Both the position numbers and the translations under genes were made by a program. From a virus (lineage: Duplodnaviria; Heunggongvirae; Uroviricota; Caudoviricetes): a stretch of 26,735 bases of DNA. Under the pieces are notes generated by a model that worked only from the letters and a program-made list of their open reading frames with translations, made no database searches and was not told where the DNA came from. Position 1 is the first letter of the stretch. Each line of letters opens with the position of its first letter. This document shows positions 1-18,113 of the stretch, in pieces. Location: positions 1 to 26,735 of IMG/VR virus record IMGVR_UViG_2802429240_000009; one strand, 5' to 3'.

Positions 1-1164
1 TTACGCCTTCTTTATATCCTCCATAATTCCAGAGTGGGACATATTTGGGACATTATCACCAAAAATGTCGTCTATTTTCCTCGCATGCTCTGTCAAATGA
101 TTAGGCGCAAGGTGAGCATACCTACGAACCATTTCTATGGACTCCCATCCGCCCATTTCCTGAAGCACTGATAATGGGACGCCTGACTGAATCAGCCAGC
201 TTGCCCAGGTGTGTCTGAGGTCATGGAAACGGAAATCTTCAATTCCTGCACGACGACAAGCTGATAGCCATGATGTTTTGCTGTCGATGCGCATCTTCCT
301 GACCGCAGGCGTTGATGTTCCATCTGCTCGCTTAGCCGCCTTGGTATGTACAAACACCCATTTGTGATGCTTGCCTATTTGATCACGCAACACTTTACAG
401 GCGGTATCGTTCAGCGCCACACCAATGGCGCGGTTTGATTTGCTCTCTTCTGGATTCACCCAGGCAACTCGTCGCTGCATGTCGATTTGTTGCCATTCCA
501 GATTTATGATGTTCGACTTTCTCAGACCAGTTGCCAGCGCAAACTTGACGACAGATTTCAGTGGTTCGGGGCACTCATCAATAAGGCGTTTTGCTTCCTC
601 CTTTTCCAGCCATCTGACTCGCTTGTTTCTGACCGCTGGTATATTGATTACAGGAGCTTTTTCCAGCCACTTCCAGTCGCGTTCTGCAGCACGGAGAATG
701 GCCTTTATCATGGCAAGATGCTTTGCCTTTGTCTGAGTTGATACTGGCTTTGGTTCATAAACAGGCGGTTCTTTACCTTTCCTGATGGCGGCCTGAACTT
801 TCTGTTTCCATATTTCTTTCGTCTTTCTGTTATGCATTCTGCTTACAGCAGAGTAAATCTTTGCCTCCGAGATATCTTTAAGCCTTATACCCTCAAAATG
901 TTCAAGCCAGAACTCAATCCGGCTTTTATCTGAATCGAGAGATTTTTTATCAGCTTTTTCCTCAAGCCATCTTAGGCAGGCCTCTTCAAAAGTGACATCA
1001 GGTAAATCCCCTAGCTTTTCTACTCGCCAGAGTTCTGCTTTTCGCTTGTCGTGCAACTCCTGAGCTTGCCGCTTGTCCTTTGTGCCAAGAGATTCCTTAA
1101 TTCGTTTCCCGCCCGGGAGCGAATACGAGGCATACCATATTTCATTTCTGCGGAAGAGTGACAT
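1..1164 (-). CDS. int: Phage tyrosine integrase (387 aa), phage-21/DLP12-type
   Basis: Full-length ORF on the minus strand with stop at window position 1-3. The C-terminal region has the tyrosine-recombinase signature ([11 protein letters not shown]...[16 protein letters not shown]). It sits at the prophage end next to an excisionase ORF. The attachment site would lie left of the window. Confidence 0.9.
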
Positions 1165-1391
1165 TTTCTTTCCTCTGTTATGCCATCACCCGCGCTCACC
1201 TGGACAGTATGCAGCGGAGACTGAAGCGCCGCAATGCAGGCTTGCCGTGTTGTGAGGTAAGGAGATTTTGGCTTGGTTGGATCTTTGCGTGTTGCCTGTA
1301 GGCGGCCTGTTCGTATCCAGTTGGTGGCGGTTGGTCTGGATATCTTAAGAAACTGACAGGCCTCATCGAGTGTGAGGCTGTATGATTCCAT
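1020..1391 (-). CDS. xis: Excisionase / AlpA-family HTH DNA-binding protein; 3' part overlaps int
   Basis: The stretch [31 protein letters not shown] is a typical Xis/AlpA helix-turn-helix. GAGGT lies 5 nt upstream of the ATG at 1391. The frame runs 145 nt into the int coding region, so the true functional 3' end is uncertain. The ORF-track start at 1421 is an upstream extension. Confidence 0.5.
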
Positions 1392-1641
1392 GGTTACCTC
1401 TGCTTTTTGAACGCATGTCACGTAACTTCTTAATGTGTTCTGCCGTTTCGATCTCTTCTGCTATCCGATCTGCATCAGCTTTATTCACAGGTTCAAAGTC
1501 ATGATTAAAGCGGAACATGCTGGCGATACATGTTCTGCCTTTTCGGATGTAGTGAACTTTGTTGTGGGTAGAACGCAGGATTTTGCAGGGAGTGCCGTGG
1601 TGGTCGACGTACCAGGTGTTAGGAAAAATGATTCTGAACAT
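1363..1641 (-). CDS. Hypothetical early-left protein (92 aa)
   Basis: ORF with GAGGTG Shine-Dalgarno 6 nt upstream of the ATG. It is co-oriented with and tightly packed among the early-left genes. No motif recognised. Confidence 0.5.
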   Translation of the reverse strand: MFRIIFPNTWYVDHHGTPCKILRSTHNKVHYIRKGRTCIASMFRFNHDFEPVNKADADRIAEEIETAEHIKKLRDMRSKSRGNHGIIQPHTR

Positions 1642-1688
1642 TTTTACACCTCAGTTGGACGATGTTGAAATTTGCTGCTTTGAGGCCA

Positions 1689-1907
1689 TCACAGTCCCCA
1701 TTGTTTGTTCTTAAGTTCGATCTCCTCCTGGCAACTTGCACAAGTCCGACAACCCTGAACAGCCAGGCGTCTTCGCTCATCTATCGGATCGCCACACTCA
1801 CAACAATGAGTTGCGGATACAGTCTGGTAGTTCAGACGACGCATTTTTATTGCTGTATTGCGCTGTAATTCTTCGATTTCTGATGCTGAATCAATGATGT
1901 CTGTCAT
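1689..1907 (-). CDS. TraR/DksA-family C4 zinc-finger protein (72 aa)
   Basis: C-terminal CxxC-(17)-CxxC spacing (CCECGDPIDERRR...CRTCASC) typical of phage TraR-like proteins, as commonly found in lambdoid early-left regions. Confidence 0.7.
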   Translation of the reverse strand: MTDIIDSASEIEELQRNTAIKMRRLNYQTVSATHCCECGDPIDERRRLAVQGCRTCASCQEEIELKNKQWGL

Positions 1908-1960
1908 CTTTCATTAATCCCTGAATTGTTGATTAATACGCTTGAGGGTAAATGCGAATA

Positions 1961-1985
1961 ATAAAAAAGGAGCCTGTAGCTCCCT
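1961..1985 (-). terminator. Weak candidate intrinsic terminator downstream of the DGQHR gene (minus orientation)
   Basis: On the minus strand a GGAGC/GCTCC stem (1969-1983, 5-nt loop) is followed by a U-tract (A-run 1963-1968 on the plus strand). The stem is short. Confidence 0.3.
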
Positions 1986-2060
1986 GATGATTTTGCTTTT
2001 CATGTTCACCGTTCCTTAAAGACGCCGTACAGCATGCTGATATGAGACAATGTTGATTCA

Positions 2061-3125
2061 TTAAGTTGATTCCAGACTTCCTTTGGTAAAAGCTTGTATC
2101 AGTCTGTTTGCTGCTGCTTTCTGCGCTGCCACATTGGCAATAACAGATAGTTTTTCCTGGCTGGCTTTCGTGCAGATCCCCGCCCAGTTATCCATCAGAA
2201 AAAAATCCTCTCTTTCTGCAGAGCTGGTAGTTGCACATAGTTTTTCGATCATAGAAGTTATTTCTGCGATGGAATGATTAACCATCATCTGTTGAACCGC
2301 AAAACCGAAAGCGTTAATCATTACTCCATGGAACTGAATATAATCGCGCTTGTACGTAGCGTGGTGTACACCATGTCGGATTGAGTCAATCTGAGTTAGT
2401 GTAATCCATGCCTCCCAGACAGATTCTATATATCCCATTTCAAGTTGTTGATTGCCGTTCCTGGCGAACTTTGACGTTGCATCAGTGAGTGCCTTGAAAC
2501 TCACCCACATATTACTTTTTAATGGCACTACGTTGTGTTCAAAATCGGTTATATCGGCAAATACAGTATGTTGGGTCAGGAAGGATATCATTCCCTGAGC
2601 AATATCATCCCGGCCGTTATACGCCATATTGATGGTCGCTGATGGCTTAGAAACGTTGTTATTTATGTCCGAAAAGAACTGCTGCCGGGTTTTTAGCGGC
2701 AGATTCATTGTAAGCATCATGGGAACCATGAGCGTTGATGGGGAACTTCGGCAAAATATCTCAATGCCAGCTGCACGATGTTGACCATCAAAAAGTTTTA
2801 TTTCGGCGTCGAGGGGAATTCTGGCTATACCAACATTTGTGTTGCCAAACGGTACAAATTCTATATTCGAATCACAGTTACCTACGAGAGGGGGAATGAT
2901 AAAAGGCTCATTTCTTGAGTCTGCGTTAGTGAGATAATTTAAAAATTTTCGTACTCGATTTGGATTAATTTCTCGCTGAGAGCGTTCCAGTGTATGGCCG
3001 TAATTATCTGAAGCGAGGAAACGAGCCAGCGATCTTCCTGGTATGGTAAGGAAGAGTGTAACAGTACCACCCTGTACACCTTGCGATGCCGGAAATTCGA
3101 ATGAATGATTACCAACCTGACTCAT
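2061..3125 (-). CDS. DGQHR-motif protein (DndB-like, ParB/sulfiredoxin-fold superfamily), 354 aa; accessory gene
   Basis: The literal motif IKLFDGQHRAAGIEIF is present in the protein. AGGAGG lies 7 nt upstream of the ATG. The gene sits where lambda carries its dispensable orf63/orf61/ea22/ea8.5 genes. Confidence 0.7.
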   Translation of the reverse strand: MSQVGNHSFEFPASQGVQGGTVTLFLTIPGRSLARFLASDNYGHTLERSQREINPNRVRKFLNYLTNADSRNEPFIIPPLVGNCDSNIEFVPFGNTNVGIARIPLDAEIKLFDGQHRAAGIEIFCRSSPSTLMVPMMLTMNLPLKTRQQFFSDINNNVSKPSATINMAYNGRDDIAQGMISFLTQHTVFADITDFEHNVVPLKSNMWVSFKALTDATSKFARNGNQQLEMGYIESVWEAWITLTQIDSIRHGVHHATYKRDYIQFHGVMINAFGFAVQQMMVNHSIAEITSMIEKLCATTSSAEREDFFLMDNWAGICTKASQEKLSVIANVAAQKAAANRLIQAFTKGSLEST

Positions 3126-3280
3126 ATATCCTCCTGTTTATTATTTATCTTCTCAGCCAGCCGCTGTGCTTTCAGTGGATTTCTGATAACAGAAAGGCCG
3201 GGAAATACCCAGCCTCGCTTTGTAACGGAGTAGATGAAAGTGATCGCGCCTACCCGGATATTATCGTGAGGATGCTTCAT
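3122..3280 (-). CDS. Small early-left ORF (52 aa) translationally coupled to exo and to the DGQHR gene
   Basis: Its ATG overlaps the exo stop (ATGA) and its TGA overlaps the DGQHR start (ATGA). Translation is [52 protein letters not shown]. It resembles, from memory, the small lambda ORF just downstream of exo. It is below the ORF-track size cutoff. Confidence 0.4.
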
Positions 3281-3957
3281 CGCCATTGCTCCCCAAATAC
3301 AAAACCAATTTCAGCCAGTGCCACGTCCATTTTTTCGATGAACTCCGGCACCATCTCGTCAAAATTCGCCATGTACTTTTCATTCCGCTCAATCACGACA
3401 TAATGCAGGCCTTCACGCTTCATACGCGGGTCATAGTTGGCAAAGTACCAGGCATCTTTTCGCGTCACCCACATGCTGTACTGCACCTGGGCCATGTAAG
3501 CCGATTTTATGGCCTCGAAACCACCGAGCCGGAACTTCATGAAATCCCGGGAGGTAAACGGGCATTTCAGTTCAAGGCCGTTGCCGTCACTGCATAAACC
3601 ATCGGGAGAGCAGGCGGTGCGCATACTTTCGTCGCGATAGATGATCGGGGATTCAGTAACATTCACGCCGGAAGTGAATTCAAACAGGGTTCTGGCGTCG
3701 TTCTCGTACTGTTTTCCCCAGGCCAGCGCCTTAGCATTAACTTCCGGAGCCACACCGGTGCAAACCTCAGCCAGCAGGGTGTGGAAGTAGGACATTTTCA
3801 TGTCAGGCCACTTCTTTCCTGAGCGGGGCTTTGCTATCACGTTGTGAACTTCTGAAGCGGTGATGACGCCGAGCCGTAATTTGTGCCATGCATCATCCCC
3901 CTGTTCGACAGCTCTCACGTCGATCCCGGTACGCTGCAGGATAATGTCCGGTGTCAT
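3277..3957 (-). CDS. exo: Lambda-type 5'-3' exonuclease (Red alpha), 226 aa
   Basis: Near-identical over its full length to lambda Exo as recalled ([43 protein letters not shown]...). Confidence 0.95.
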
Positions 3958-4739
3958 GCTGCCACCTTCTGCTCAGTGGCTTTCTGTTTCAGGAATCCAA
4001 GAGCTTTCACTGCTTCGGCCTGTGTCAGTTCTGACGATGCGCGAATGTCGCGGCGAAATATCTGGGAACAGAGCGGCAATAAGTCGTCATCCCATGTTTT
4101 ATCCAGGGCGATCAGCAGAGTGTTAATCTCCTGCATGGTTTCATCGTTAACCGGAGTGATGTCGCGTTCTGGCTGACGTTCTGCAGTGTATGCAGTATTT
4201 TCGACAATGCGCTCGGCTTCATCCTTGTCATAGATACCAGCAAATCCGAAGGCCAGACGGGCACACTGAATCATGGCTTTATGCCGTAACATCCGTTTGG
4301 GATGCGACTGCCACGGCCCCGTGATTTCTCTGCCTTCGCGAGTTTTGAATGGTTCGCGGCGGCATTCATCCATCCATTCGGTAACGCAGATCGGATGATT
4401 ACGGTCCTTGCGGTAAATCCGGCATGTACAGGATTCATTGTTCTGCTCAAAGTCCATGCCATCAAACTGCTGGTTTTCATTGATGATGCGGGACCAGCCA
4501 TCAACGCCCACCACCGGAACGATGCCGTTCTGCTTATCAGGGAAGGCGTAAATTTCTTTCGTCCACGGATTAAGGCCGTACTGGTTGGCGACGATCAACA
4601 ATGCGATGAACTGCGCATCGCTGGCATCACCTTTAAATGCCGTCTGGCGAAGAGTGGTGATCAGTTCCTGTGGGTCGACAGAATCCATGCCGACACGTTC
4701 AGCCAGCTTCCCTGCCAGCGTTGCGAGTGCTGTACTCAT
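3954..4739 (-). CDS. bet: Lambda-type single-strand annealing protein Bet (Red beta), 261 aa
   Basis: Near-identical to lambda Bet ([68 protein letters not shown]...). Its stop overlaps the exo start. Confidence 0.95.
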
Positions 4740-4744
4740 CCGTT

Positions 4745-5041
4745 TTATACCTCTGAATCAATATCAACCTGGTGGTGAGCAATGGTTTCAACCATGTACT
4801 GGATGTGTTCTGCCATGCGCTCCTGAAACTCAACATCGTCATCAAACGCACGGGTAATGGCTTTTTTGCTGGCCCCGTGGCGTTGCAAATGATCGATGCA
4901 TAGCGATTCAAACAGGTGCTGGGGCAGGCCTTTTTCCATGTCGTCTGCCAGTTCTGCCTCTTTCTCTTCACGGGCGATCTGCTGGTAGTGACGCGCCCAG
5001 CTCTGAGCCTCAAGACGATCCTGAATGTAATAAGCGTTCAT
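4745..5041 (-). CDS. gam: Gam, RecBCD inhibitor (98-aa short form)
   Basis: Matches lambda GamS ([21 protein letters not shown]...[10 protein letters not shown]). The upstream frame does not continue into the long Gam N-terminal extension. Confidence 0.9.
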
Positions 5042-5116
5042 GGCTGACCTCCTGAAAATGGCTGTGAAAATATCGCCCGCGAAATGCCAGGCTGATTAGG
5101 AAAACAGGAAAGGGGA

Positions 5117-5407
5117 TTAGTGATTCAGGCCGTTACCGCGTCCGTCGAGAAAAACTTCCACGAGCAAATCACGGGTATAAGTGCGCTCGATGCCGCGATG
5201 CAGATAAAGCCGTCCGCGTAAATTAGCTGATGCAGTCCAGGTACCATCTTTGTGTTTGACCAGCATTCCTGGCATGACCGCACCTCGATTAACGGTCTGC
5301 GTTCCATAATGTTGATGAACCATAAAAACTCCTGCCCGTAAGCTGGGCTGCTGAACATATAGAGACTTCTGCGCGTATTCAGGCGGTGGATGGCCGCCGG
5401 TTGTCAT
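5117..5407 (-). CDS. Hypothetical protein (96 aa), first ORF downstream of pL
   Basis: ORF occupying the position of N/cIII/kil in lambda, but with no arginine-rich motif and no recognisable family. An alternative 77-aa frame overlaps it (5125-5358). The ribosome-binding site is weak, so coding status is uncertain. Confidence 0.3.
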
Positions 5408-5600
5408 AACTAAGCCGCCTCGTTGAAGCGACTAAGGTATGAAATGTTGAGTTAATTTCAGCTGGTCACACCGACGTTCACGCGTCCGTTTCACCCCTCG
5501 CACTCCCCGAAGCCTGCTGAAATTCAAACTGCGGATCTAAGCGGTCATCGCAACGGTGAATCAGGTAGTTGCCGTATCGTTGTGTTGTTGCGATGAACTT

Positions 5601-5643
5601 ATTTAAAACTATAGTTGTTTTATCGTCAACAACAAAAGTTGTT
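5601..5643 (-). promoter_or_regulatory. pL-like promoter with operator-like dyads (OL)
   Basis: In minus orientation: -35 TTGACG (plus 5624-5629), 17-nt spacer, -10 TTAAAT (plus 5601-5606). The spacer carries AAAACAACTATAGTTTT, differing by one base from the element in the pR spacer. A second dyad, AACAAC-AAAA-GTTGTT (5628-5643), overlaps the -35. Confidence 0.5.
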
Positions 5644-5770
5644 TTATTGGTTGTTTTAGATATAACTGGTTGTATTTAGGATGGATTTATTTTGTGACTT
5701 GAATCGCATAGCGATAACTGAAGCGAGGTTATGGTGGTTTTTTTAACGGTGTGTGTGATGAGGGGAGGGC

Positions 5771-5797
5771 AAAAGAAAACCCGGCACGGTGACCGGG
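5771..5797 (-). terminator. Intrinsic terminator downstream of cI
   Basis: In minus orientation a CCCGG-UCACCGUG-CCGGG stem-loop (plus 5780-5797) is followed by UUUUCUUUU (plus 5771-5779). It lies about 120 nt after the cI stop. Confidence 0.55.
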
Positions 5798-5918
5798 ATT
5801 CTTACGCCGTTAGGTAAAGATATTATTGCGGTGGCTTAATATTACTACCTAGAGCAAAGATAGGAATTAGTTCTTTACTGAATGAGCACAATGCCCAGTT
5901 GATAATTTTTAATTGGTA

Positions 5919-6608
5919 CTACCCATGCTTCCTATATGTCTGCGGCATGCTCCCAATAACCTTACCGAAGATGAACACCCGGTTCATCTCGTCTTTCTCG
6001 ATCGGGTCCCACGGTGAGTAGCTTTTGTTATCAGAGATGACCAGCAGCTTATCCTTCATCATTTGCAGGCGCTTTACATGGGCTGTGTCGTCGTACAGAA
6101 ACGCATAGATACCATCACCGTCGAAAGATTTAACTGTGATATCAACGAACAGCAGATCACCTGGTTCGATCGTTCCTGACATGCTGTCACCACGCACGTT
6201 AATGATGCGGATATTTTCCGCCTTCCTACCATCGAACATGTGACGAGCATCGTCAAACGAGTACTCAACCGAGCGTAGAACTTCTACAAACTCACGGTTG
6301 ATGACTCCCGGCCCAGCACTGACTTCTATATCAAGAACGTCAATCTTGAAGTATTTGGAATGGCTGACAGTTGATTGTATTGGTTGCACTGTACTGTCTG
6401 ACATATTTCCAACGCCAGAAGATAACCATTCTGCGCGCACACCCAAAGCGTTCGCGATCTCCACGATTTTAGTTGTTTGATTAGCTTTCCCTGTTTCGAT
6501 TTTCTGAATAGCAGCCTGGCTAACCCCGACCAAATCCCCAAGCGCCTTTTGTGTAAGGCCTCGCGCTAATCTGGCTTCTTTAAGTCTTTCTGAGAGTGTT
6601 GTTTTCAT
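5919..6608 (-). CDS. cI: CI-type prophage repressor (N-terminal HTH plus C-terminal S24 LexA-like autopeptidase), 229 aa
   Basis: HTH region LTQKALGDLVGVSQAAIQKIETG, and Ser/Lys dyad context (VRGDSMSGTIEPGDLLFVD ... AHVKRL). The start at 6608 is preferred over the ORF-track start at 6674, which would overlap the pR -35 and operator. A pRM-like -10 lies 6 nt upstream, so the transcript is probably leaderless. Confidence 0.8.
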   Translation of the reverse strand: MKTTLSERLKEARLARGLTQKALGDLVGVSQAAIQKIETGKANQTTKIVEIANALGVRAEWLSSGVGNMSDSTVQPIQSTVSHSKYFKIDVLDIEVSAGPGVINREFVEVLRSVEYSFDDARHMFDGRKAENIRIINVRGDSMSGTIEPGDLLFVDITVKSFDGDGIYAFLYDDTAHVKRLQMMKDKLLVISDNKSYSPWDPIEKDEMNRVFIFGKVIGSMPQTYRKHG

Positions 6609-7638: not shown

Positions 7639-8568
7639 ATGGCAAACACTGCTGAGATATTCAATTTTCCAGTGCCGGATGCGGCACAAAAGGAGCCGCG
7701 CGTGGCAGATCTCGATGATGGTTATACGCGCATTGCAAATGAGTTGCTGGAAGCTGTGATGCTGACCGGATTAACACAGCACCAGCTTCTGGTCTTTCTG
7801 GCTGTCATGCGCAAAACATATGGCTTTAATAAAAGACTGGATTGGGTGAGCAACGAGCAACTTTCCGAATTGACCGGGATATTGCCGCACAAGTGTTCTG
7901 CTGCAAAAAGCGTTCTGGTAAAGCGTGGGATTCTTATTCAGAGCGGGCGGAATATCGGCATTAATAATGTGGTCAGTGAATGGTCAACATTACCCGAATC
8001 AGGTAAGAAAAATAAAGTTTACCTGAAAGAGGTAAATTTACCTGAATCAGGTAAGAAAAGTTTACCCAAATCAGGTAAAGGCGTTTACCCGAATCAGGTA
8101 AACACAAAAGACAAACTAACAAAAGACAATATAAAACCTTTTTCGTCCGAGAATTCTGGCGAATCCTCTGACCAGCCAGAAAACGATCTTCCTGTGGTGA
8201 AACCGGATGCTGCAATTCAGAGCGGCAGCAAGTGGGGGACAGCAGAAGACCTGACCGCCGCAGAGTGGATGTTTGACATGGTGAAGACTATCGCACCATC
8301 AGCCAGAAAACCGAATTTTGCTGGGTGGGCTAACGATATCCGCCTGATGCGTGAACGTGACGGACGTAACCACCGCGACATGTGCGTGCTGTTCCGCTGG
8401 GCATGCCAGGACAACTTCTGGTCCGGTAACGTGCTGAGCCCGGCCAAACTCCGCGATAAGTGGACCCAACTCGAAATCAACCGTAACAAGCAACAGGCAG
8501 GCGTGATAGCCAGCAAACCAAAACTCGACCTGACGAACACTGACTGGATTTACGGGGTGGAGCTATGA
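7639..8568 (+). CDS. O: Replication initiator O (hybrid: divergent N-terminal iteron-binding domain, lambda-like C-terminal domain)
   Basis: N-terminus MANTAEIFNF...VADLDDGY parallels lambda O; C-terminus (AEWMFDMVKTIAPSARKPNFAGWANDIRLMRERDGRNHRDMCVLFRWACQDNFWSGNVLSPAKLRDKWTQLEINRNKQQAG...) is lambda-like. GGGAGG precedes the ATG at 7639. An alternative coupled start at 7549 exists. The gene contains the iteron array. Confidence 0.8.
   Translation: MANTAEIFNFPVPDAAQKEPRVADLDDGYTRIANELLEAVMLTGLTQHQLLVFLAVMRKTYGFNKRLDWVSNEQLSELTGILPHKCSAAKSVLVKRGILIQSGRNIGINNVVSEWSTLPESGKKNKVYLKEVNLPESGKKSLPKSGKGVYPNQVNTKDKLTKDNIKPFSSENSGESSDQPENDLPVVKPDAAIQSGSKWGTAEDLTAAEWMFDMVKTIAPSARKPNFAGWANDIRLMRERDGRNHRDMCVLFRWACQDNFWSGNVLSPAKLRDKWTQLEINRNKQQAGVIASKPKLDLTNTDWIYGVEL
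7990..8145. repeat. Origin of replication: five near-palindromic iterons plus an AT-rich tract inside O
   Basis: Iterons of consensus TTTACC(C/T)GAATCAGGTAA at 7990-8006, 8018-8036, 8037-8054, 8061-8079 and 8084-8102, followed by the A/T-rich stretch 8103-8145. This is the same architecture as ori-lambda. Confidence 0.8.
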
Positions 8569-9266
8569 AAAACATCGCCGCACAGATGGTTAACTTTGAC
8601 CGTGAGCAGATGCGTCGGATCGCCAACAACATGCCGGAACAGTACGACGAAAAGCCGCAGGTACAACAGGTAGCGCAGATCATCAATGGTGTGTTCAGCC
8701 AGTTACTAGCAACTTTCCCGGCGAGCCTGGCTAACCGGGACCAGAACGAACTGAACGAAATCCGCCGCCAGTGGGTGCTGGCTTTCCGGGAAAACGGGAT
8801 CACCACAATGGAACAGGTTAACGCAGGAATGCGCGTAGCCCGTCGGCAGAATCGACCATTCCTGCCATCACCCGGGCAGTTTGTCGCCTGGTGCCGGGAA
8901 GAAGCATCCATTACCGCCGGGCTGCCAAACGCCAGCGAGCTGGTTGATATGGTTTACGAGTATTGCCGGAAGCGTGGCCTGTATCCGGACGCAGAGTCTT
9001 ATCCATGGAAATCGAACGCGCACTACTGGCTGGTTACCAACCTGTACCAGAACATGCGAGCCAATGCGCTGACTGACGCGGAATTACGGCGCAAGGCTGC
9101 CGATGAACTGACCTGTATGACAGCGCGAATTAACCGTGGTGAGGCTATACCTGAACCAGTAAAACAACTTCCTGTCATGGGCGGTAGACCTCTAAATCGT
9201 GCACAGGCTCTGGCGAAGATCGCAGAAATCAAAGCTAAGTTTGGGCTTAAAGGAGCAAGTGTATGA
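8565..9266 (+). CDS. P: Replication protein P (DnaB helicase loader), 233 aa
   Basis: Near-identical to lambda P as recalled (MKNIAAQMVNFDREQMRRIANNMPEQYDEKPQVQQVAQIINGVFSQLLATFPASLANRDQNE...). Confidence 0.95.
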   Translation: MKNIAAQMVNFDREQMRRIANNMPEQYDEKPQVQQVAQIINGVFSQLLATFPASLANRDQNELNEIRRQWVLAFRENGITTMEQVNAGMRVARRQNRPFLPSPGQFVAWCREEASITAGLPNASELVDMVYEYCRKRGLYPDAESYPWKSNAHYWLVTNLYQNMRANALTDAELRRKAADELTCMTARINRGEAIPEPVKQLPVMGGRPLNRAQALAKIAEIKAKFGLKGASV

Positions 9267-9565
9267 CGGGCAAAGAGGCAATTATTCATTACCTGGGGAC
9301 TCATAAGAACTTCTGTGCGCAGGACGTTGCCGCGGTAACAGGCGCAACCGTAACCAGCATAAATCAGGCTGCGGCTAAAATGGCGCGGGCAGGAATCCTG
9401 GTCGTTGATGGTAAGGTCTGGCGAACGGTGTATTACCGGTTCGCTACCAGAGAAGAACGGGAAGGAAAGGTGAGCACGAATCTGATTTTTAAGGAGTGTC
9501 GCCAGAGTGCCGCGATGAAACGGGTATTGAGGGTATATAAAAGAACATCAATGGGTACACAATGA
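9263..9565 (+). CDS. ren: Ren protein (100 aa)
   Basis: Close match to lambda Ren (MTGKEAIIHYLGTHKNFCAQDVAAVTGATVTSINQAAAKMARAG...). Start overlaps the P stop. Confidence 0.9.
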   Translation: MTGKEAIIHYLGTHKNFCAQDVAAVTGATVTSINQAAAKMARAGILVVDGKVWRTVYYRFATREEREGKVSTNLIFKECRQSAAMKRVLRVYKRTSMGTQ

Positions 9566-9632
9566 TGAAACAGGTGAGTTGAGTTCAAACTGTAGTACAA
9601 TTCTCTCCAGTTTGAACAGGAAAGAATATGCT

Positions 9633-9965
9633 ATGAACCCTTATATTTATCTTGGTGGTGCAATACTTGCAGAGGTCATTGGTACAACCTTAATGAAGTT
9701 TTCAGAAGGTTTTACACGGTTATGGCCATCTGTTGGTACAATTATTTGTTATTGTGCATCATTCTGGTTATTAGCTCAGACGCTGGCTTATATTCCTACA
9801 GGGATTGCTTATGCTATCTGGTCAGGAGTCGGTATTGTCCTGATTAGCTTACTGTCATGGGGACTTTTCGGCCAACGGCTGGACCTGCCAGCCATTATAG
9901 GCATGATGTTGATTTGTGCCGGTGTGTTGGTTATTAATTTATTGTCACGAAGCACACCACATTAA
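9633..9965 (+). CDS. emrE: EmrE small multidrug resistance (SMR) efflux transporter, 110 aa
   Basis: Matches E. coli EmrE essentially residue for residue from MNPYIYLGGAILAEVIGTTLMKFSEGF, including the conserved Glu14. The ORF-track start at 9579 is an upstream extension covering a hairpin. AT-rich relative to the backbone. Confidence 0.95.
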   Translation: MNPYIYLGGAILAEVIGTTLMKFSEGFTRLWPSVGTIICYCASFWLLAQTLAYIPTGIAYAIWSGVGIVLISLLSWGLFGQRLDLPAIIGMMLICAGVLVINLLSRSTPH

Positions 9966-9995
9966 AATAATTTGTTTCTAAACGACTAAAATATG

Positions 9996-10036
9996 GAGGC
10001 TCTTATATTTATATGAGCCTCGTTTTATGCTTTTTG
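9996..10036 (+). terminator. Intrinsic terminator after emrE
   Basis: GAGGCTC (9996-10002) and GAGCCTC (10015-10021) form a 7-bp stem with a 12-nt AT loop, followed by GTTTTATGCTTTTTG. Confidence 0.6.
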
Positions 10037-10219
10037 TTAATGTCTTTATTTTTTATGTATTCTTTTGTGCTTTCAAGATTATGGCGTAAGAAAATTGCAA
10101 TACGATTATTGTTGTATATTCAAGATAATGTGACCTTAATTGTCTTTTTAAATAAAAATTAAACAAAAATTATATCCCACCACTAAGGTTTATAAAAGCA
10201 TACGTTAGCAGGTGTCACC

Positions 10220-11746
10220 ATGAAAAAAGCCATAGCATATATGCGATTTTCATCACCAGGTCAGATGTCTGGTGACTCATTAAACCGACAGAGAAGACTT
10301 ATTGCTGAATGGTTAAAGGTAAATAGTGATTATTATCTTGATACCATAACATATGAAGATTTAGGATTAAGTGCATTCAAAGGAAAGCATGCACAATCAG
10401 GAGCTTTTTCGGAATTTTTAGATGCTATAGAGCATGGTTATATATTGCCAGGAACTACATTGTTAGTTGAAAGTCTGGACAGACTTTCAAGAGAAAAAGT
10501 CGGTGAAGCGATTGAACGTCTGAAATTGATTTTGAATCACGGTATTGATGTTATAACTCTTTGCGACAATACAGTCTATAATATTGACTCTTTGAATGAG
10601 CCATATTCATTAATAAAAGCCATACTTATAGCACAAAGGGCAAATGAAGAAAGCGAGATAAAGTCAAGTCGGGTTAAATTATCATGGAAGAAAAAACGGC
10701 AGGATGCACTGGAATCAGGTACGATTATGACGGCGTCTTGTCCGAGATGGCTCTCATTGGATGACAAAAGAACGGCTTTTGTTCCAGACCCCGACAGGGT
10801 GAAAACTATTGAGCTAATTTTTAAACTCAGGATGGAAAGGCGCTCATTGAATGCAATAGCCAAGTATTTAAATGATCATGCTGTAAAGAATTTCTCAGGA
10901 AAAGAAAGTGCATGGGGACCTTCTGTAATTGAAAAATTATTAGCGAATAAAGCTCTGATAGGTATATGCGTACCTTCATATCGTGCAAGAGGGAAAGGGA
11001 TAAGTGAAATCGCTGGCTATTATCCCAGAGTCATATCAGATGATTTGTTTTACGCTGTACAGGAAATTCGGTTGGCACCTTTTGGTATTAGCAATAGTAG
11101 CAAGAATCCTATGCTAATAAATCTACTTCGAACAGTTATGAAGTGTGAGGCTTGTGGTAATACCATGATTGTTCATGCGGTATCTGGAAGTTTGCATGGC
11201 TATTATGTTTGTCCGATGAGAAGATTACATCGATGTGACAGGCCATCAATAAAAAGAGATTTGGTTGATTATAATATCATTAATGAATTGCTTTTTAATT
11301 GTAGCAAAATTCAACCAGTTGAAAACAAGAAAGATGCTAATGAAACTTTAGAGTTAAAAATTATTGAGCTTCAGATGAAAATTAATAATTTAATTGCTGC
11401 ATTATCTGTTGCGCCTGAAGTTACCGCTATAGCAGAAAAAATCAGAGTATTAGATAAGGAATTACGAAGGGCTTCTGTATCATTAAAAACTTTGAAGAGT
11501 AAAGCGGTGAGCTCACTTGGTGATTTTCATGCTATTGACTTAACCAGTAAAAATGGGCGAGAGCTATGTCGTACACTTGCCTATAAAACATTCGAAAAAA
11601 TCATAATCAATACAGATAATAAAACCTGTGATATCTATTTTATGAATGGCATTGTTTTTAAACACTATCCTTTAATGAAAACAATATCCGCCCAGCAGGC
11701 GATAAGTACTCTCAAATATATGGTTGATGGTGAGGTTTATTTTTGA
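10220..11746 (+). CDS. ybcK: Large serine recombinase (resolvase/invertase-type catalytic domain, recombinase domain, zinc ribbon), 508 aa
   Basis: N-terminal AIAYMRFSSPGQ with the probable catalytic Ser, then LNRQRRLI. Cys pairs CEACGN...YYVCPMRRLHRC form the zinc ribbon, and the C-terminus is coiled-coil-like. Size and position after emrE match DLP12 ybcK as I recall it. AT-rich. Confidence 0.85.
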   Translation: MKKAIAYMRFSSPGQMSGDSLNRQRRLIAEWLKVNSDYYLDTITYEDLGLSAFKGKHAQSGAFSEFLDAIEHGYILPGTTLLVESLDRLSREKVGEAIERLKLILNHGIDVITLCDNTVYNIDSLNEPYSLIKAILIAQRANEESEIKSSRVKLSWKKKRQDALESGTIMTASCPRWLSLDDKRTAFVPDPDRVKTIELIFKLRMERRSLNAIAKYLNDHAVKNFSGKESAWGPSVIEKLLANKALIGICVPSYRARGKGISEIAGYYPRVISDDLFYAVQEIRLAPFGISNSSKNPMLINLLRTVMKCEACGNTMIVHAVSGSLHGYYVCPMRRLHRCDRPSIKRDLVDYNIINELLFNCSKIQPVENKKDANETLELKIIELQMKINNLIAALSVAPEVTAIAEKIRVLDKELRRASVSLKTLKSKAVSSLGDFHAIDLTSKNGRELCRTLAYKTFEKIIINTDNKTCDIYFMNGIVFKHYPLMKTISAQQAISTLKYMVDGEVYF

Positions 11747-11857
11747 GTAATAATCACTTTTTCAACCGTGCTATAGTAAGAAAGTTAGGTAAGTACAATA
11801 AAATTATCTATCCTGAACGAAGCGTCCTGAGCTATGATTTTACTATAGGGACTGCCA

Positions 11858-12181
11858 ATGGATGCTGGCGTTCTCGTTCTAGCAGTTCAACAATCCCCAA
11901 TCACAAAACAATTCACTGATAACGAACTTTGCACACTCGCCTGGTTATGGCGAGCAGGGAATGTGATGTTAATTGCCTACCAGAACGTTACTCATCTTCT
12001 TCAGGATGCGGAGCATGGTGAAGCTGGTCACTTCACTTCCATCGAGCAAGAATATCCCCAGATACTCAACAGAGCGCGAGCAATCCTCGTCCGAGAAACG
12101 GCACATGTAAAACTTCAGCCGTGGCAGGATGATAAGTGGAGTCGAGTATTGCCGCATTTACCTCAGAATCTGTTTCAATAA
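11858..12181 (+). CDS. Hypothetical protein (107 aa)
   Basis: ORF only, with a weak ribosome-binding site and no recognisable motif. Its base composition is more GC-rich than the flanking AT-rich genes. It is followed by a perfect 10-bp hairpin. Confidence 0.3.
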   Translation: MDAGVLVLAVQQSPITKQFTDNELCTLAWLWRAGNVMLIAYQNVTHLLQDAEHGEAGHFTSIEQEYPQILNRARAILVRETAHVKLQPWQDDKWSRVLPHLPQNLFQ

Positions 12182-16070: not shown

Positions 16071-17030
16071 ATGATAAAAAAACCTGTGATTGGAATCAGC
16101 GGTTGTTTGGCCGGCTCTGCTGTTCGTTTTGATGGTGGTCACAAAAGAGCTGACTTTTTAATGGACAAATTAGTGGAATGGGTAACATTCAGACCAGTAT
16201 GTCCGGAAATGGCTATAGGGCTGCCAGTTCCGCGTCCTGCTCTACGTCTTGTGCGCTCGACGCAAGGAAATATACGGATGTGTTTCAGCCACGACCAGAA
16301 TGAGGATGTGACAGAGAGAATGACAGAGTTTAGTCGTTCTTATATGGACAAATTAAAGGATGTATCGGGGTTTGTGGTTTGTGCTAAATCTCCCAGCTGT
16401 GGCATGGAGCGCGTGCGTGTCTATGATGAAAATGGTAATCGAGGTCGTAAAGATGGAGTGGGACTATTTACGAGCACTTTGATGGAAAAGTTTTCCTGGC
16501 TACCGGTTGAAGAGGATGGGCGATTACATGATCCAGTGCTTCGTGAGAATTTTGTTGAAAGAGTTTTTGCTTTGCATGAGCTCAATCACCTTTACAAGGA
16601 GAAATTATCAAGAAGAGAGTTATTAGCTTTTCATAGTCGTTATAAGCTTCAGTTGTTGGCGCATAGTCAGGCAGGCTATAAAGATATGGGACCATTTGTG
16701 GCTGCAATACACGAGTGGGCGGACCTTGAATCATACTTTGAGGTGTATCGTGATAAGCTGATGGCGATTCTCAGAAAACCTGCATCACGTAAAAATCACA
16801 CGAATGTGCTGATGCATATACAGGGGTATTTTAGTAACTACTTAAGTACACGCCAGCGTAAAGAGTTGAGCGAGGTTATACTTAACTATCGTTCTGGCAC
16901 ATTACCTCTTCTTGCGCCGTTGACTCTGCTGAAGCATTATCTGGGTGAGTATCCTAATGATTACTTGCTTACACAGAATTACTTCGCTCCCTATCCGGAC
17001 GAACTGGCTCTAAGACTGATGGTAAATTAA
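16071..17030 (+). CDS. DUF523 (TudS-like, Cys-ligated Fe-S) / DUF1722 (YbgA-like) fusion protein, 319 aa
   Basis: N-terminal half has conserved Cys residues in a DUF523-like arrangement (GISGCLAG, VCPE, CAKSPSCG). The C-terminal half resembles YbgA/DUF1722 (ELLAFHSRYKLQLLAHS). GGGGGAG Shine-Dalgarno. This is a family assignment from memory. Confidence 0.65.
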   Translation: MIKKPVIGISGCLAGSAVRFDGGHKRADFLMDKLVEWVTFRPVCPEMAIGLPVPRPALRLVRSTQGNIRMCFSHDQNEDVTERMTEFSRSYMDKLKDVSGFVVCAKSPSCGMERVRVYDENGNRGRKDGVGLFTSTLMEKFSWLPVEEDGRLHDPVLRENFVERVFALHELNHLYKEKLSRRELLAFHSRYKLQLLAHSQAGYKDMGPFVAAIHEWADLESYFEVYRDKLMAILRKPASRKNHTNVLMHIQGYFSNYLSTRQRKELSEVILNYRSGTLPLLAPLTLLKHYLGEYPNDYLLTQNYFAPYPDELALRLMVN

Positions 17031-17372
17031 TTGTATGCGATATCATCCAAAAGGATGAGTTCCTGCATGCAAGATATTTACAATCGTAAAAACTACACTA
17101 TGATACCCAGAGTGTCAGTTTGTATAAAAACTCTGTTTACGCTGAAGAAACCATTGAGATGCAACTTAAAGTTGGTAAACATGCCAGTCAAAATATATAA
17201 TATTATGATTCCACGCAGCTATATATAATATAACAGATTGGTTTAATAATTTGTCTTTGTGAGTTAAATACATAATTTTATACTTGTGATGCAATGAGAT
17301 TTTCCTTATTGTTGAACTGGCGAATATTGATTTTCCACCTATACTTACCTGGTGTAACCCCAATGATATCAG

Positions 17373-18113
17373 GTGGATAATATGCCATACATATGTTCTA
17401 TCATTTTGGTGTTGAACTCGTTTGATGTCCGAATTGGTAAAGAAGATATTTTGTTTAAAAAAGGAAGTGCTGTTCTCATTGATTACAATTTAAAAGATTT
17501 TTTTTCATCAAATATAGATCATGTAATGATCGTAGATGTTGAAGAGAAAACAGTTAATGATTTCTTTAAAAGCAACACACTCTCACCTTTTTCTGTAAGA
17601 AGGTTTTATCCGGCATACTTGATGGTGGAATGTGAAGATTTTTCATTGTTAAAGAACTTGATTGCATGCTTGAATTGTGATGGCAGAACTGTGGATTTTG
17701 TTAGAAATCAAATATCACTTGCATGTCTTGCTATCTTATCTTCAGAGAAAATAGTGCAAAGTTTTTTATTTGGATGTCTTAATAGTTTAGGAAGTAAAGT
17801 TAAGGCTATTATTCACACGGATATATCTGCAGCATGGAGACTTTGTGATATATCTTCAAGACTGTATCTGAGTGAAAGTCTGTTAAAAAGAAAATTAAAG
17901 CACGAAGGCTTATCATTTAGTAAGTTAATTCTTGAAGAGCGAATGGTGATGGCGGAAAGGTTATTAAGCTACAATTTATATTCTGTTGGAAAAGTTGCTG
18001 AGATATGCGGTTATGAAAACACGTCATATTTTGTAAGTGTTTTCAGAAGATATTTTGGTGTTCCTCCCCATCAATATTCATCAAGACTTTTTTTAGAAAA
18101 AGACATGATGTAA
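17373..18113 (+). CDS. AraC/XylS-family transcriptional regulator (246 aa)
   Basis: C-terminal double HTH of the AraC family (VGKVAEICGYENTSYFVSVFRRYFGVPPHQY). Very AT-rich, with an AT-rich 340-bp upstream region. Confidence 0.8.
   Translation: MDNMPYICSIILVLNSFDVRIGKEDILFKKGSAVLIDYNLKDFFSSNIDHVMIVDVEEKTVNDFFKSNTLSPFSVRRFYPAYLMVECEDFSLLKNLIACLNCDGRTVDFVRNQISLACLAILSSEKIVQSFLFGCLNSLGSKVKAIIHTDISAAWRLCDISSRLYLSESLLKRKLKHEGLSFSKLILEERMVMAERLLSYNLYSVGKVAEICGYENTSYFVSVFRRYFGVPPHQYSSRLFLEKDMM

Follow-up and report, generated by a model that had tools for sequence, protein, structure and literature searches.

A Stand-Alone DGQHR/DndB-Like Gene in a Lambdoid Prophage: A Candidate Accessory of DNA Modification and Anti-Restriction

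Introduction

What is a DndB-like gene doing in the early operon of a lambdoid prophage? DndB and DpdB are known only within multi-gene DNA-modification systems that defend bacteria, and the gene considered here represents a distinct branch on the other side of that conflict. The DNA analyzed in the present work (hereafter, the window) is the whole 26,735-nucleotide stretch of the IMG/VR virus record IMGVR_UViG_2802429240_000009, an E. coli lambdoid prophage at the argU/DLP12 attachment site; an intact open reading frame (ORF) on its minus strand (positions 2061–3125) codes for a protein of 354 amino acids with a DGQHR motif. An initial annotation had placed this protein in the DGQHR family and had considered it a single-gene candidate for phage exclusion, anti-restriction, or the sensing of DNA modification.

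The generic RefSeq annotation of the gene and its family membership were already known. What is new here is the setting, i.e., a branch of the DndB family decoupled from Dnd and found among the counter-defense genes of mobile elements; the protein belongs to such elements and not to a Dnd system. Literature searches retrieved no study on stand-alone, phage-borne, or plasmid-borne members of the DGQHR clade. The family is small, since an exhaustive HMMER search returned 586 representative clusters (E ≤ 1e-3) among 1.84 billion proteins.

Family Membership and Domain Organization

The window protein (RefSeq WP_021557045.1, "DGQHR domain-containing protein"; PHROG 7901) scored 188.8 bits with TIGR03187, the DGQHR domain model (cutoff 58.85; E 1.5e-55), and 158.2 bits with PF14072, the Pfam DndB family (cutoff 29.1). 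It also obtained 126 bits with the PADLOC DndB model and 716 bits with PHROG 7901, a family of "unknown function". Judging from profile scores so far above the cutoffs, the DGQHR pentapeptide is no chance motif, and the assignment to the DGQHR/DndB superfamily made in the initial annotation was borne out. With TIGR03233, the equivalog model of true DndB, the score was 106.9 bits, far under the cutoff of 328. Being above the first two cutoffs and below the third, the protein is a member of the superfamily without being DndB proper. No NCBIfam DpdB model matched it at E ≤ 0.01.

The hallmarks of the DGQHR domain, as defined in PMC4619093, are the QR pair, the DGQHR pentapeptide, and the FxxxN motif. 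All three are present in the window protein and are invariant in 34 orthologs: RSQRE, the QR pair, at residues 48–52 (positions 2970–2984, minus strand; R48, S49, Q50, R51, and E52), the signature DGQHR at residues 113–117 (2775–2789, minus strand), and FSDIN, the FxxxN motif, at residues 151–155 (2661–2675, minus strand). DGQHR is the counterpart of the phosphate-binding motif that reads GxxR in ParB and GCHR in sulfiredoxin (PMC4619093, PMC10164549).

The ParB-like fold suggested by the initial annotation was seen for the N-terminal half of the protein: a ParB/sulfiredoxin-fold domain covers approximately residues 1–200 (2526–3125, minus strand) and is a predicted nucleoside triphosphate (NTP) binder. 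The fold relatives of the window protein, with the figures obtained, are PadC (7.8), sulfiredoxin (5.7), SbnI (5.3), the N-terminal domain of pNOB8 ParB (5.3), KorB (5.3), SerK (5.0), and BrxU (4.3); neither Foldseek nor sequence searches against the PDB gave anything significant for the protein. NTP binding and DNA binding are to be taken as predicted activities.

The C-terminal domain (residues 205–354; 2064–2513, minus strand) is all-helical and is without a convincing solved structural relative. It gave no HNH, DUF1524, or HEPN match, and a HEPN four-helix fold was unsupported when compared with solved HEPN structures. Moreover, in the Pfam scan of the window protein DndB was the sole domain, with no nuclease or other effector domain. 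The C-terminal domain includes the stretch YKRDYIQFH (2328–2354, minus strand), a conserved (K/R)-x5/6-H arrangement also found in DndB (LRQDYVHAH), and a HEPN-like Rx4-6H motif has been proposed for the DndB C-terminus (PMC3632139). In the window protein the residues are K259-R260-x5-H266, with H266 and K259 invariant and R260 replaced by lysine in several orthologs. The stretch is possibly a vestige of the motif proposed for DndB.

Phage and Prophage Homologs

Orthologs sharing 55–73% identity with the window protein are widespread in prophages and temperate phages of Enterobacterales (Salmonella SPN1S, SPN9TCW, and SPC32H; Klebsiella prophages). They were retrieved by protein-level search; a megablast against the phage collection gave no match. 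A total of 108 loci were fetched and their flanking ORFs were clustered, and long alignments were needed for a methyltransferase to be called.

A DNA methyltransferase is located on the same strand, 0–502 bp downstream, in 43 of the 62 evaluable orthologous loci (Enterobacterales other than E. coli). It comes directly after the DGQHR gene or past one small gene, coding for either a 154-residue Cys-rich protein or a 179-residue helix-turn-helix (HTH) protein. Four Pfam families with no relation to one another are represented among these methyltransferases (MT-A70, Dam (PF05869), N6_N4, and C5), and all four were found behind the largest single DGQHR lineage, which points to a repeated exchange of the methyltransferase beside a nearly constant DGQHR gene. 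Once the loci are de-replicated at 90% identity, the association is found in 6 of 15 clusters. The 32 loci with the E. coli allele showed no adjacent methyltransferase.

Either of the two small spacer genes could be a third component of the module. The 154-residue protein (in loci such as L084 and L070) has a Cys-rich C-terminus and no Pfam hit, and in the 179-residue one HTH motifs are repeated and GcrA gives a weak match below the threshold.

Among more distant homologs, one from a Vibrio phage (32% identity) has a C5 methylase and an integrase, in this order, behind it, and one from a Pseudoalteromonas phage lies among genes resembling 3'-phosphoadenosine 5'-phosphosulfate (PAPS) reductase and a C5 methylase. 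RdgC comes after DGQHR homologs in two unrelated lineages, i.e., in Gilliamella (L027, 9071–9955) and in Vibrio phage PS14A.1 (L111, 7703–8878). As a control, a Halobacteriovorax homolog of 25% identity (L028) is followed by dndC-, dndD-, and dndE-like genes, as judged by sequence inspection.

Two further cases concern the relatives of the protein at large. In an E. coli Dnd island (L109; NZ_CP017251.1, 6608–7768), dndE and dptH are separated by the gene for a second "DGQHR domain-containing protein" and, adjoining it, a short ORF that carries the annotation DndB; the two may be pieces of a single gene from the Dnd-associated DGQHR family (TIGR04172). Furthermore, the only informative fusion among 14 long relatives is the protein P0231 (591 residues), in which a full DndB domain is joined to MutS domain I, a mismatch-binding domain.

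Plasmid Homologs

By tblastn, homologs were found on 1,071 of 72,556 plasmids, 885 of the 1,071 being conjugative; most matches share about 42% identity across about 88% of the window protein. In a crude neighbor-joining tree, operon-linked DndB (22% identity to the window protein) falls outside the group formed by the prophage and plasmid proteins of Enterobacterales (31–42%). The plasmid neighborhoods are described here from sampled cases.

On IncL/M plasmids, the homolog is embedded in a same-strand run composed of a RadC-like JAB gene, an HTH gene, the DGQHR gene, a small ORF, DUF4942, Hha, DUF1380, an antirestriction gene (PF03230), and ssb. The run is transcribed toward the origin of transfer (oriT), and on that side it stops immediately ahead of mobA and of the relaxase gene traI, a position that identifies it as the leading region. 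Leading regions are enriched in anti-defense genes, orphan methyltransferases, and many phage-related families (PMC11541004). DUF4942 (YdiA-like) is among the large leading-region-enriched families labeled as putative methyltransferases in the same study; DGQHR proteins are not singled out there, and its supplement has only one family so labeled, with seven members (PMC11541004).

The DGQHR homolog is intact in pCTX-M3-like IncL/M plasmids and is split by IS1 into two pieces in plasmids of about 63.6 kb, whose size and host range agree with those of the pOXA-48 IncL lineage (H89–H104, e.g., NZ_CP068321.1, 30197–31929); the two types represent a natural knockout pair.

IncN-like conjugative plasmids of about 40 kb harbor a gene for a 425-residue DGQHR protein directly upstream of ardB-ardR, between mucAB and the ccg genes (e.g., L116; NZ_CP116079.1, 6989–9311), and the same allele is present on 19 plasmids. 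An identification of window-type proteins with ArdK, the pKM101 regulator, was considered and rejected, ArdK being an HTH factor with a solved structure. In Buttiauxella, Dryocola, and Pseudescherichia (L019–L024), a homolog of 438–460 residues has psiA next to it (PsiA, PF06952, E 2.8e-41). In the leading regions of plasmids the gene ahead of psiA is usually psiB, and the homolog holds that place here.

In the pL exo-xis region, in the IncL/M leading region, and in the ardB-ardR and psiA contexts, members of the family are located in a first-expressed region beside known anti-defense genes, which is a setting expected of the anti-restriction/anti-defense genes of mobile elements. The initial annotation had described the gene as standing alone; this is the case in the window, and elsewhere its orthologs mostly have an orphan methyltransferase downstream, with the plasmid homologs lying among anti-restriction and anti-SOS genes.

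An Exchangeable Cassette and Its Distribution in E. coli

A sister prophage (NZ_CM183923) shares 99.4% identity with the window across 96% of its length. Within positions 1–6000 of the window, the only part that does not align with the sister is the stretch 2042–3121 (blastn breakpoints 2041/2042 and 3121/3122), which corresponds to the DGQHR ORF plus 19 bp. The same slot of the sister holds a Dam-type N6-adenine methyltransferase gene and a 71-codon gene. The left junction of the cassette coincides with the ATGA overlap between the DGQHR gene and the gene preceding it, and the right junction is located within the 3'-terminal part of the sister's 71-codon gene. That part persists in the window as a nine-codon remnant, MLYGVFKER* (2006–2035, minus strand), of the small post-methyltransferase gene, and it represents the scar of a cassette exchange or of a deletion. 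The DGQHR gene is, hence, an exchangeable cassette, accessory rather than core. The accessory status attributed to it by the initial annotation is consistent with the Dam cassette in the sister's slot and with the presence of the DGQHR cassette in only 284 of the 5,426 complete E. coli genomes in which frequencies were counted.

Every copy in these 284 genomes is at least 99% identical. The complete Dam cassette was found in 244 genomes of the same set and dndC in 207, so that at least 77 carriers of the DGQHR gene are without Dnd. The ORF is intact in 282 of the 284 carriers. The 16 distinct sequences of the E. coli allele differ in 17 synonymous and 5 non-synonymous variant codons, and the ratio of non-synonymous to synonymous substitution rates (dN/dS) between this allele and the 73%-identical clade is 0.07. 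Purifying selection maintains this allele even though it stands alone.

Three records deserve a mention. Among the 32 loci with the E. coli allele, the only broken copy is a 99.4%-identical one with a split ORF (L057; IMGVR_UViG_2718218171_000003, about 8001–9062). A "Bacillota bacterium" metagenome-assembled genome (L007; JAEWTL010000063.1, 5,474 bp) codes for a DGQHR protein 100% identical to that of the window, in the E. coli prophage gene block gam-bet-exo-DUF1317-DGQHR-TraR-DUF4222-int, and is most likely mis-binned E. coli DNA. Finally, an identical gene on a 1.31-Mb E. coli "plasmid" record (H79; CP099174.1, 831794–832855) is probably located on a mislabeled chromosome fragment.

Locus Organization and Expression

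The genes preceding the DGQHR gene on the minus strand are, in order, gam (4745–5041), bet (3954–4739), exo (3277–3957), and an orf60a homolog (DUF1317, 54 residues; 3122–3286); it is followed by a TraR/DksA zinc-finger gene (1689–1907), a DUF4222 gene (1363–1641), and the integrase gene (1–1164). The TGA stop codon of orf60a overlaps the ATG of the DGQHR gene (ATGA, 3122–3125), and a strong Shine-Dalgarno sequence, AGGAGG (3130–3135), lies within the last orf60a codons, 4 nt upstream of the start. These features agree with the coupling to a small upstream ORF that the initial annotation had reported, and the DGQHR gene is translationally coupled to orf60a and belongs in this way to the pL early operon.

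The order in lambda is exo, orf60a, orf63, orf61, orf73, ea22, ea8.5, xis, int; the exo-xis genes and the name orf73 are those of PMC8614690. The C4 zinc-finger gene of the window, correctly recognized as TraR-like in the initial annotation, is 86% identical to an unannotated lambda ORF (30401–30613) that corresponds to orf73, and it is a backbone gene outside the cassette. The initial annotation had also held that the whole block from orf63 to ea8.5 was replaced. This is true of orf63 and orf61 and not of the rest of the block: the DGQHR gene stands in place of these two genes only, orf60a and orf73 being kept. The DGQHR protein has no similarity to orf63 or orf61.

A consensus scan found no promoter-like site upstream on the strand of the DGQHR gene, although such a scan cannot exclude a promoter, and the gene has no intergenic region of its own. 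Being coupled to the pL operon, it does not seem to conform to the classical early-left moron that the initial annotation had in mind. A terminator-like hairpin rich in G+C and followed by a T run (1967–1985, minus strand; a consensus match only) is located past the cassette and before orf73, in backbone shared with the sister prophage.

The absence of Dnd or Dpd partners in the window, asserted by the initial annotation, is in agreement with RefSeq, where no Dnd or Dpd gene is annotated either in a locus with the identical allele or in the 99.4%-identical sister prophage. A blastx of the whole window with the four methyltransferase families adjoining the orthologs gave no match, and no ParA or ParB HTH domain was found in the window protein or its neighbors.

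Elsewhere in the window, low-GC stretches (0.31–0.40) were observed at about 9,500–12,000 and 17,000–18,000; the annotation of the sister prophage assigns to them DLP12-type cargo (emrE, ylcJ, and the ybcK recombinase) and an HTH gene. An iss/bor lipoprotein gene lies near 19.5 kb.

Proposed Role

The context of the gene favors candidate roles linked to anti-restriction or DNA modification over prophage-encoded exclusion. On the basis of the comparative analysis, we tentatively propose that the window protein acts as an early-entry accessory to the DNA-modification/anti-restriction functions of its element, either by facilitation or by gene control. Taken singly, the facilitation of modification (or the shielding of DNA) is doubtful, and transcriptional control is doubtful to the same degree.

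According to this proposal, the DGQHR protein would be made early from the lambda-type pL operon, via its translational coupling to orf60a, and would act on DNA in the entry or early lytic phase. Two routes can be depicted. In the first one, the protective modification of the element's DNA would be sped or licensed, using any available methyltransferase, with DpdB for DpdA and Ral for EcoKI as precedents. In the second one, NTP-gated DNA binding would control modification/anti-restriction genes, as DndB does for dndCDE. Since an adjacent methyltransferase is absent from the window prophage, the protein would have to work there alone or with host enzymes.

A broader idea, which we regard as speculative, is that the DndB-like proteins of phages and plasmids form an unrecognized and widespread entry-phase counter-defense class, made of NTP-gated ParB-fold clamps or remodelers that would ease modification by any methyltransferase or shield the DNA. 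Such a class would explain the neighbors (interchangeable orphan methyltransferases, ArdB, and PsiA) seen in phages as well as in about 1,000 conjugative plasmids, among them the carbapenemase plasmids of the IncL/M type.

Several observations weigh against the role proposed here. The functional evidence for counter-defense is all guilt by association, and the adjacency of the DGQHR gene and the methyltransferase could be due to a mere shared insertion hotspot for accessory genes. The two genes each persist alone in the same slot (in 284 and 244 E. coli genomes, respectively), which implies that neither needs the other; moreover, no methyltransferase adjoins the gene in the Klebsiella-type clade, nor in 9 of the 15 de-replicated clusters. 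RdgC or ParAB adjoins some homologs instead, and RdgC, as a second recurrent neighbor, is left unexplained by anti-restriction. No fusion of DGQHR with a methyltransferase or a nuclease was found among the 14 longer relatives. No operator or promoter-like site was seen in the cassette, although a DndB-style autoregulator would be expected to have them. Lastly, the epidemic pOXA-48 lineage spreads well despite its IS1-disrupted copy.

If the proposal is correct, a new protein family would be added to the anti-defense repertoire, and a ParB-fold NTPase would have a function outside chromosome segregation. This would also bear on how clinically important IncL/M and IncN-type resistance plasmids spread, and likewise the prophages of E. 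coli, Salmonella, and Klebsiella. Natural variants make the function directly testable: in some the gene is alone, in others the cassette has only the methyltransferase or the module is complete, and in one plasmid lineage the copy is disrupted by IS1.

Alternative Explanations

In principle, the gene might be a prophage-encoded defense or superinfection-exclusion factor: a ParB-like NTPase recognizing foreign or modified DNA would stop incoming phages, as the DUF262 domains of GmrSD, BrxU, SspE, and DndI do. This is the exclusion idea of the initial annotation, and it is weakened by three sets of data that make it unlikely. The protein has no nuclease or effector domain, with DndB as the only Pfam domain and no HNH, DUF1524, or HEPN domain in its C-terminal part. 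No promoter-like site was seen for the gene by itself, and its coupling places it in the pL early operon, which is repressed; this argues against expression in the lysogen and, in turn, against superinfection exclusion. Finally, its homologs accompany anti-restriction genes in the leading regions of plasmids and the early operons of phages, i.e., on the attacker's side, in contexts of the invader type.

We consider unlikely, to a similar extent, that the protein is a modulator of development or host physiology like the exo-xis genes, tuning the lysis-lysogeny choice or induction as a functional stand-in for orf63/orf61. The exact orf63-orf61 position of the gene speaks for it, as do the effects of exo-xis genes on lysogenization and induction, orf60a, orf63, and orf61 being reported as pro-lytic (PMC8614690), and the fact that DndB is a transcription factor (PMC4507180). 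Such a role, however, accounts neither for the leading-region homologs of plasmids nor for the methyltransferase, ArdB, and PsiA genes that recur as neighbors, and the protein is unrelated in sequence to the two genes that it would replace.

The position just downstream of gam-bet-exo suggests a further possibility, i.e., an accessory of recombination, replication, or partition, in which a ParB-like DNA-binding NTPase would organize or protect phage DNA for Red recombination or segregation. Some homologs adjoin RdgC, ParA/ParB, or a ParB-HTH protein, and one relative is fused to MutS domain I, in keeping with such a function. Nevertheless, the recombination genes preceding the orthologs come from different families (lambda Red and RecT/RecE-like), so that none of them is specifically linked to the gene; in the sister prophage, a methyltransferase takes the slot; and no ParA partner, no HTH domain of the ParB kind, and no parS-type context are present in the window case. 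Taken together, these data make a recombination or partition accessory quite improbable.

A specific counter to Dnd/Ssp phosphorothioate (PT) or 7-deazaguanine (Dpd) systems, in which a DndB mimic would repress or hijack the host modification machinery, is very doubtful. The homology to DndB, the repressor of dndBCDE, and the occurrence of Dnd systems in E. coli would fit; on the other hand, at least 77 of the 284 carriers are without Dnd (dndC being present in 207 of 5,426 genomes), a shared operator specificity is unlikely at 23% identity, and less PT modification of the host would leave unmodified phage DNA open to DndFGH.

Lastly, that the gene is a functionless remnant left by the deletion of a neighboring methyltransferase, as might be supposed from the nine-codon scar of a gene that normally follows the methyltransferase, from the disrupted L057 allele, and from the IS1-split pOXA-48 copy, is highly improbable in view of the intact ORF in 282 of 284 E. 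coli genomes, the 17 synonymous against 5 non-synonymous variant codons with a between-clade dN/dS of 0.07, and the invariance of all catalytic-type motifs.

Comparison with Known Systems

The tentative assignment of the window protein to the modification and anti-restriction functions of its element can be set against the systems already described. The closest one is DndB (DptB). The window protein and E. coli DndB were aligned over residues 1–285 with 23% identity and an hhalign probability of 99.6%; both consist of a ParB-like domain followed by a helical one, and both have the QR, DGQHR, FxxxN, and (R/K)x5-6H motifs. Furthermore, in the orthologs, as in dnd operons, the gene comes first and the DNA-modification genes come after it. 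The dnd promoter contains palindromes to which DndB binds, repressing dndCDE downstream (PMC4507180). The window gene differs in having neither dndCDE nor dndFGH nearby and no promoter/operator region of its own, and its branch is carried by phages and plasmids, apart from operon-linked DndB in the tree.

DpdB is a homodimeric, DNA-stimulated ATPase that is needed by DpdA for the insertion of preQ0 into DNA; the two proteins do not associate stably, and the DpdB motif reads DGQQR (PMC10164549). In the window protein the corresponding motif is DGQHR, and neither DpdA, which is similar to tRNA-guanine transglycosylase (TGT), nor any other dpd gene is present here.

In a survey of the ParB fold, a DndB-like protein bound ATP and GTP, and ParB-fold domains fused to DNA methyltransferase domains were enriched in prophages, an anti-defense role being suggested for the fusions (bioRxiv 10.1101/2025.10.10.680097). 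These fusions parallel the gene order in which a methyltransferase follows DGQHR. They share their fold with the window protein, as do PadC and KorB, the latter being an NTP-gated DNA clamp that represses plasmid genes. Compared with these ParB-CTPase-fold proteins, the two functions reside here in separate, separable genes, and the window protein has no HTH, no ParA-binding motif, and no GERR box of the cytidine triphosphate (CTP) type. It also differs from canonical ParB of ParABS systems, having no ParA partner, HTH domain, or parS-type context. As for the DUF262 proteins (GmrSD, BrxU, SspE, and DndI), their C-terminal DUF1524/HNH nuclease is missing in the window protein, and the context of the window gene is that of an invader and not of a defender.

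A last term of comparison is lambda Ral, an early protein that acts for EcoKI and relieves restriction through enhanced modification. Ral has no sequence or fold relation to the window protein, for which an anti-restriction role is a candidate one. Nevertheless, the window gene resembles Ral and the orphan methyltransferases (PMC11541004 for the latter) in its early expression from an invading element and in occupying a slot common with orphan methyltransferases.

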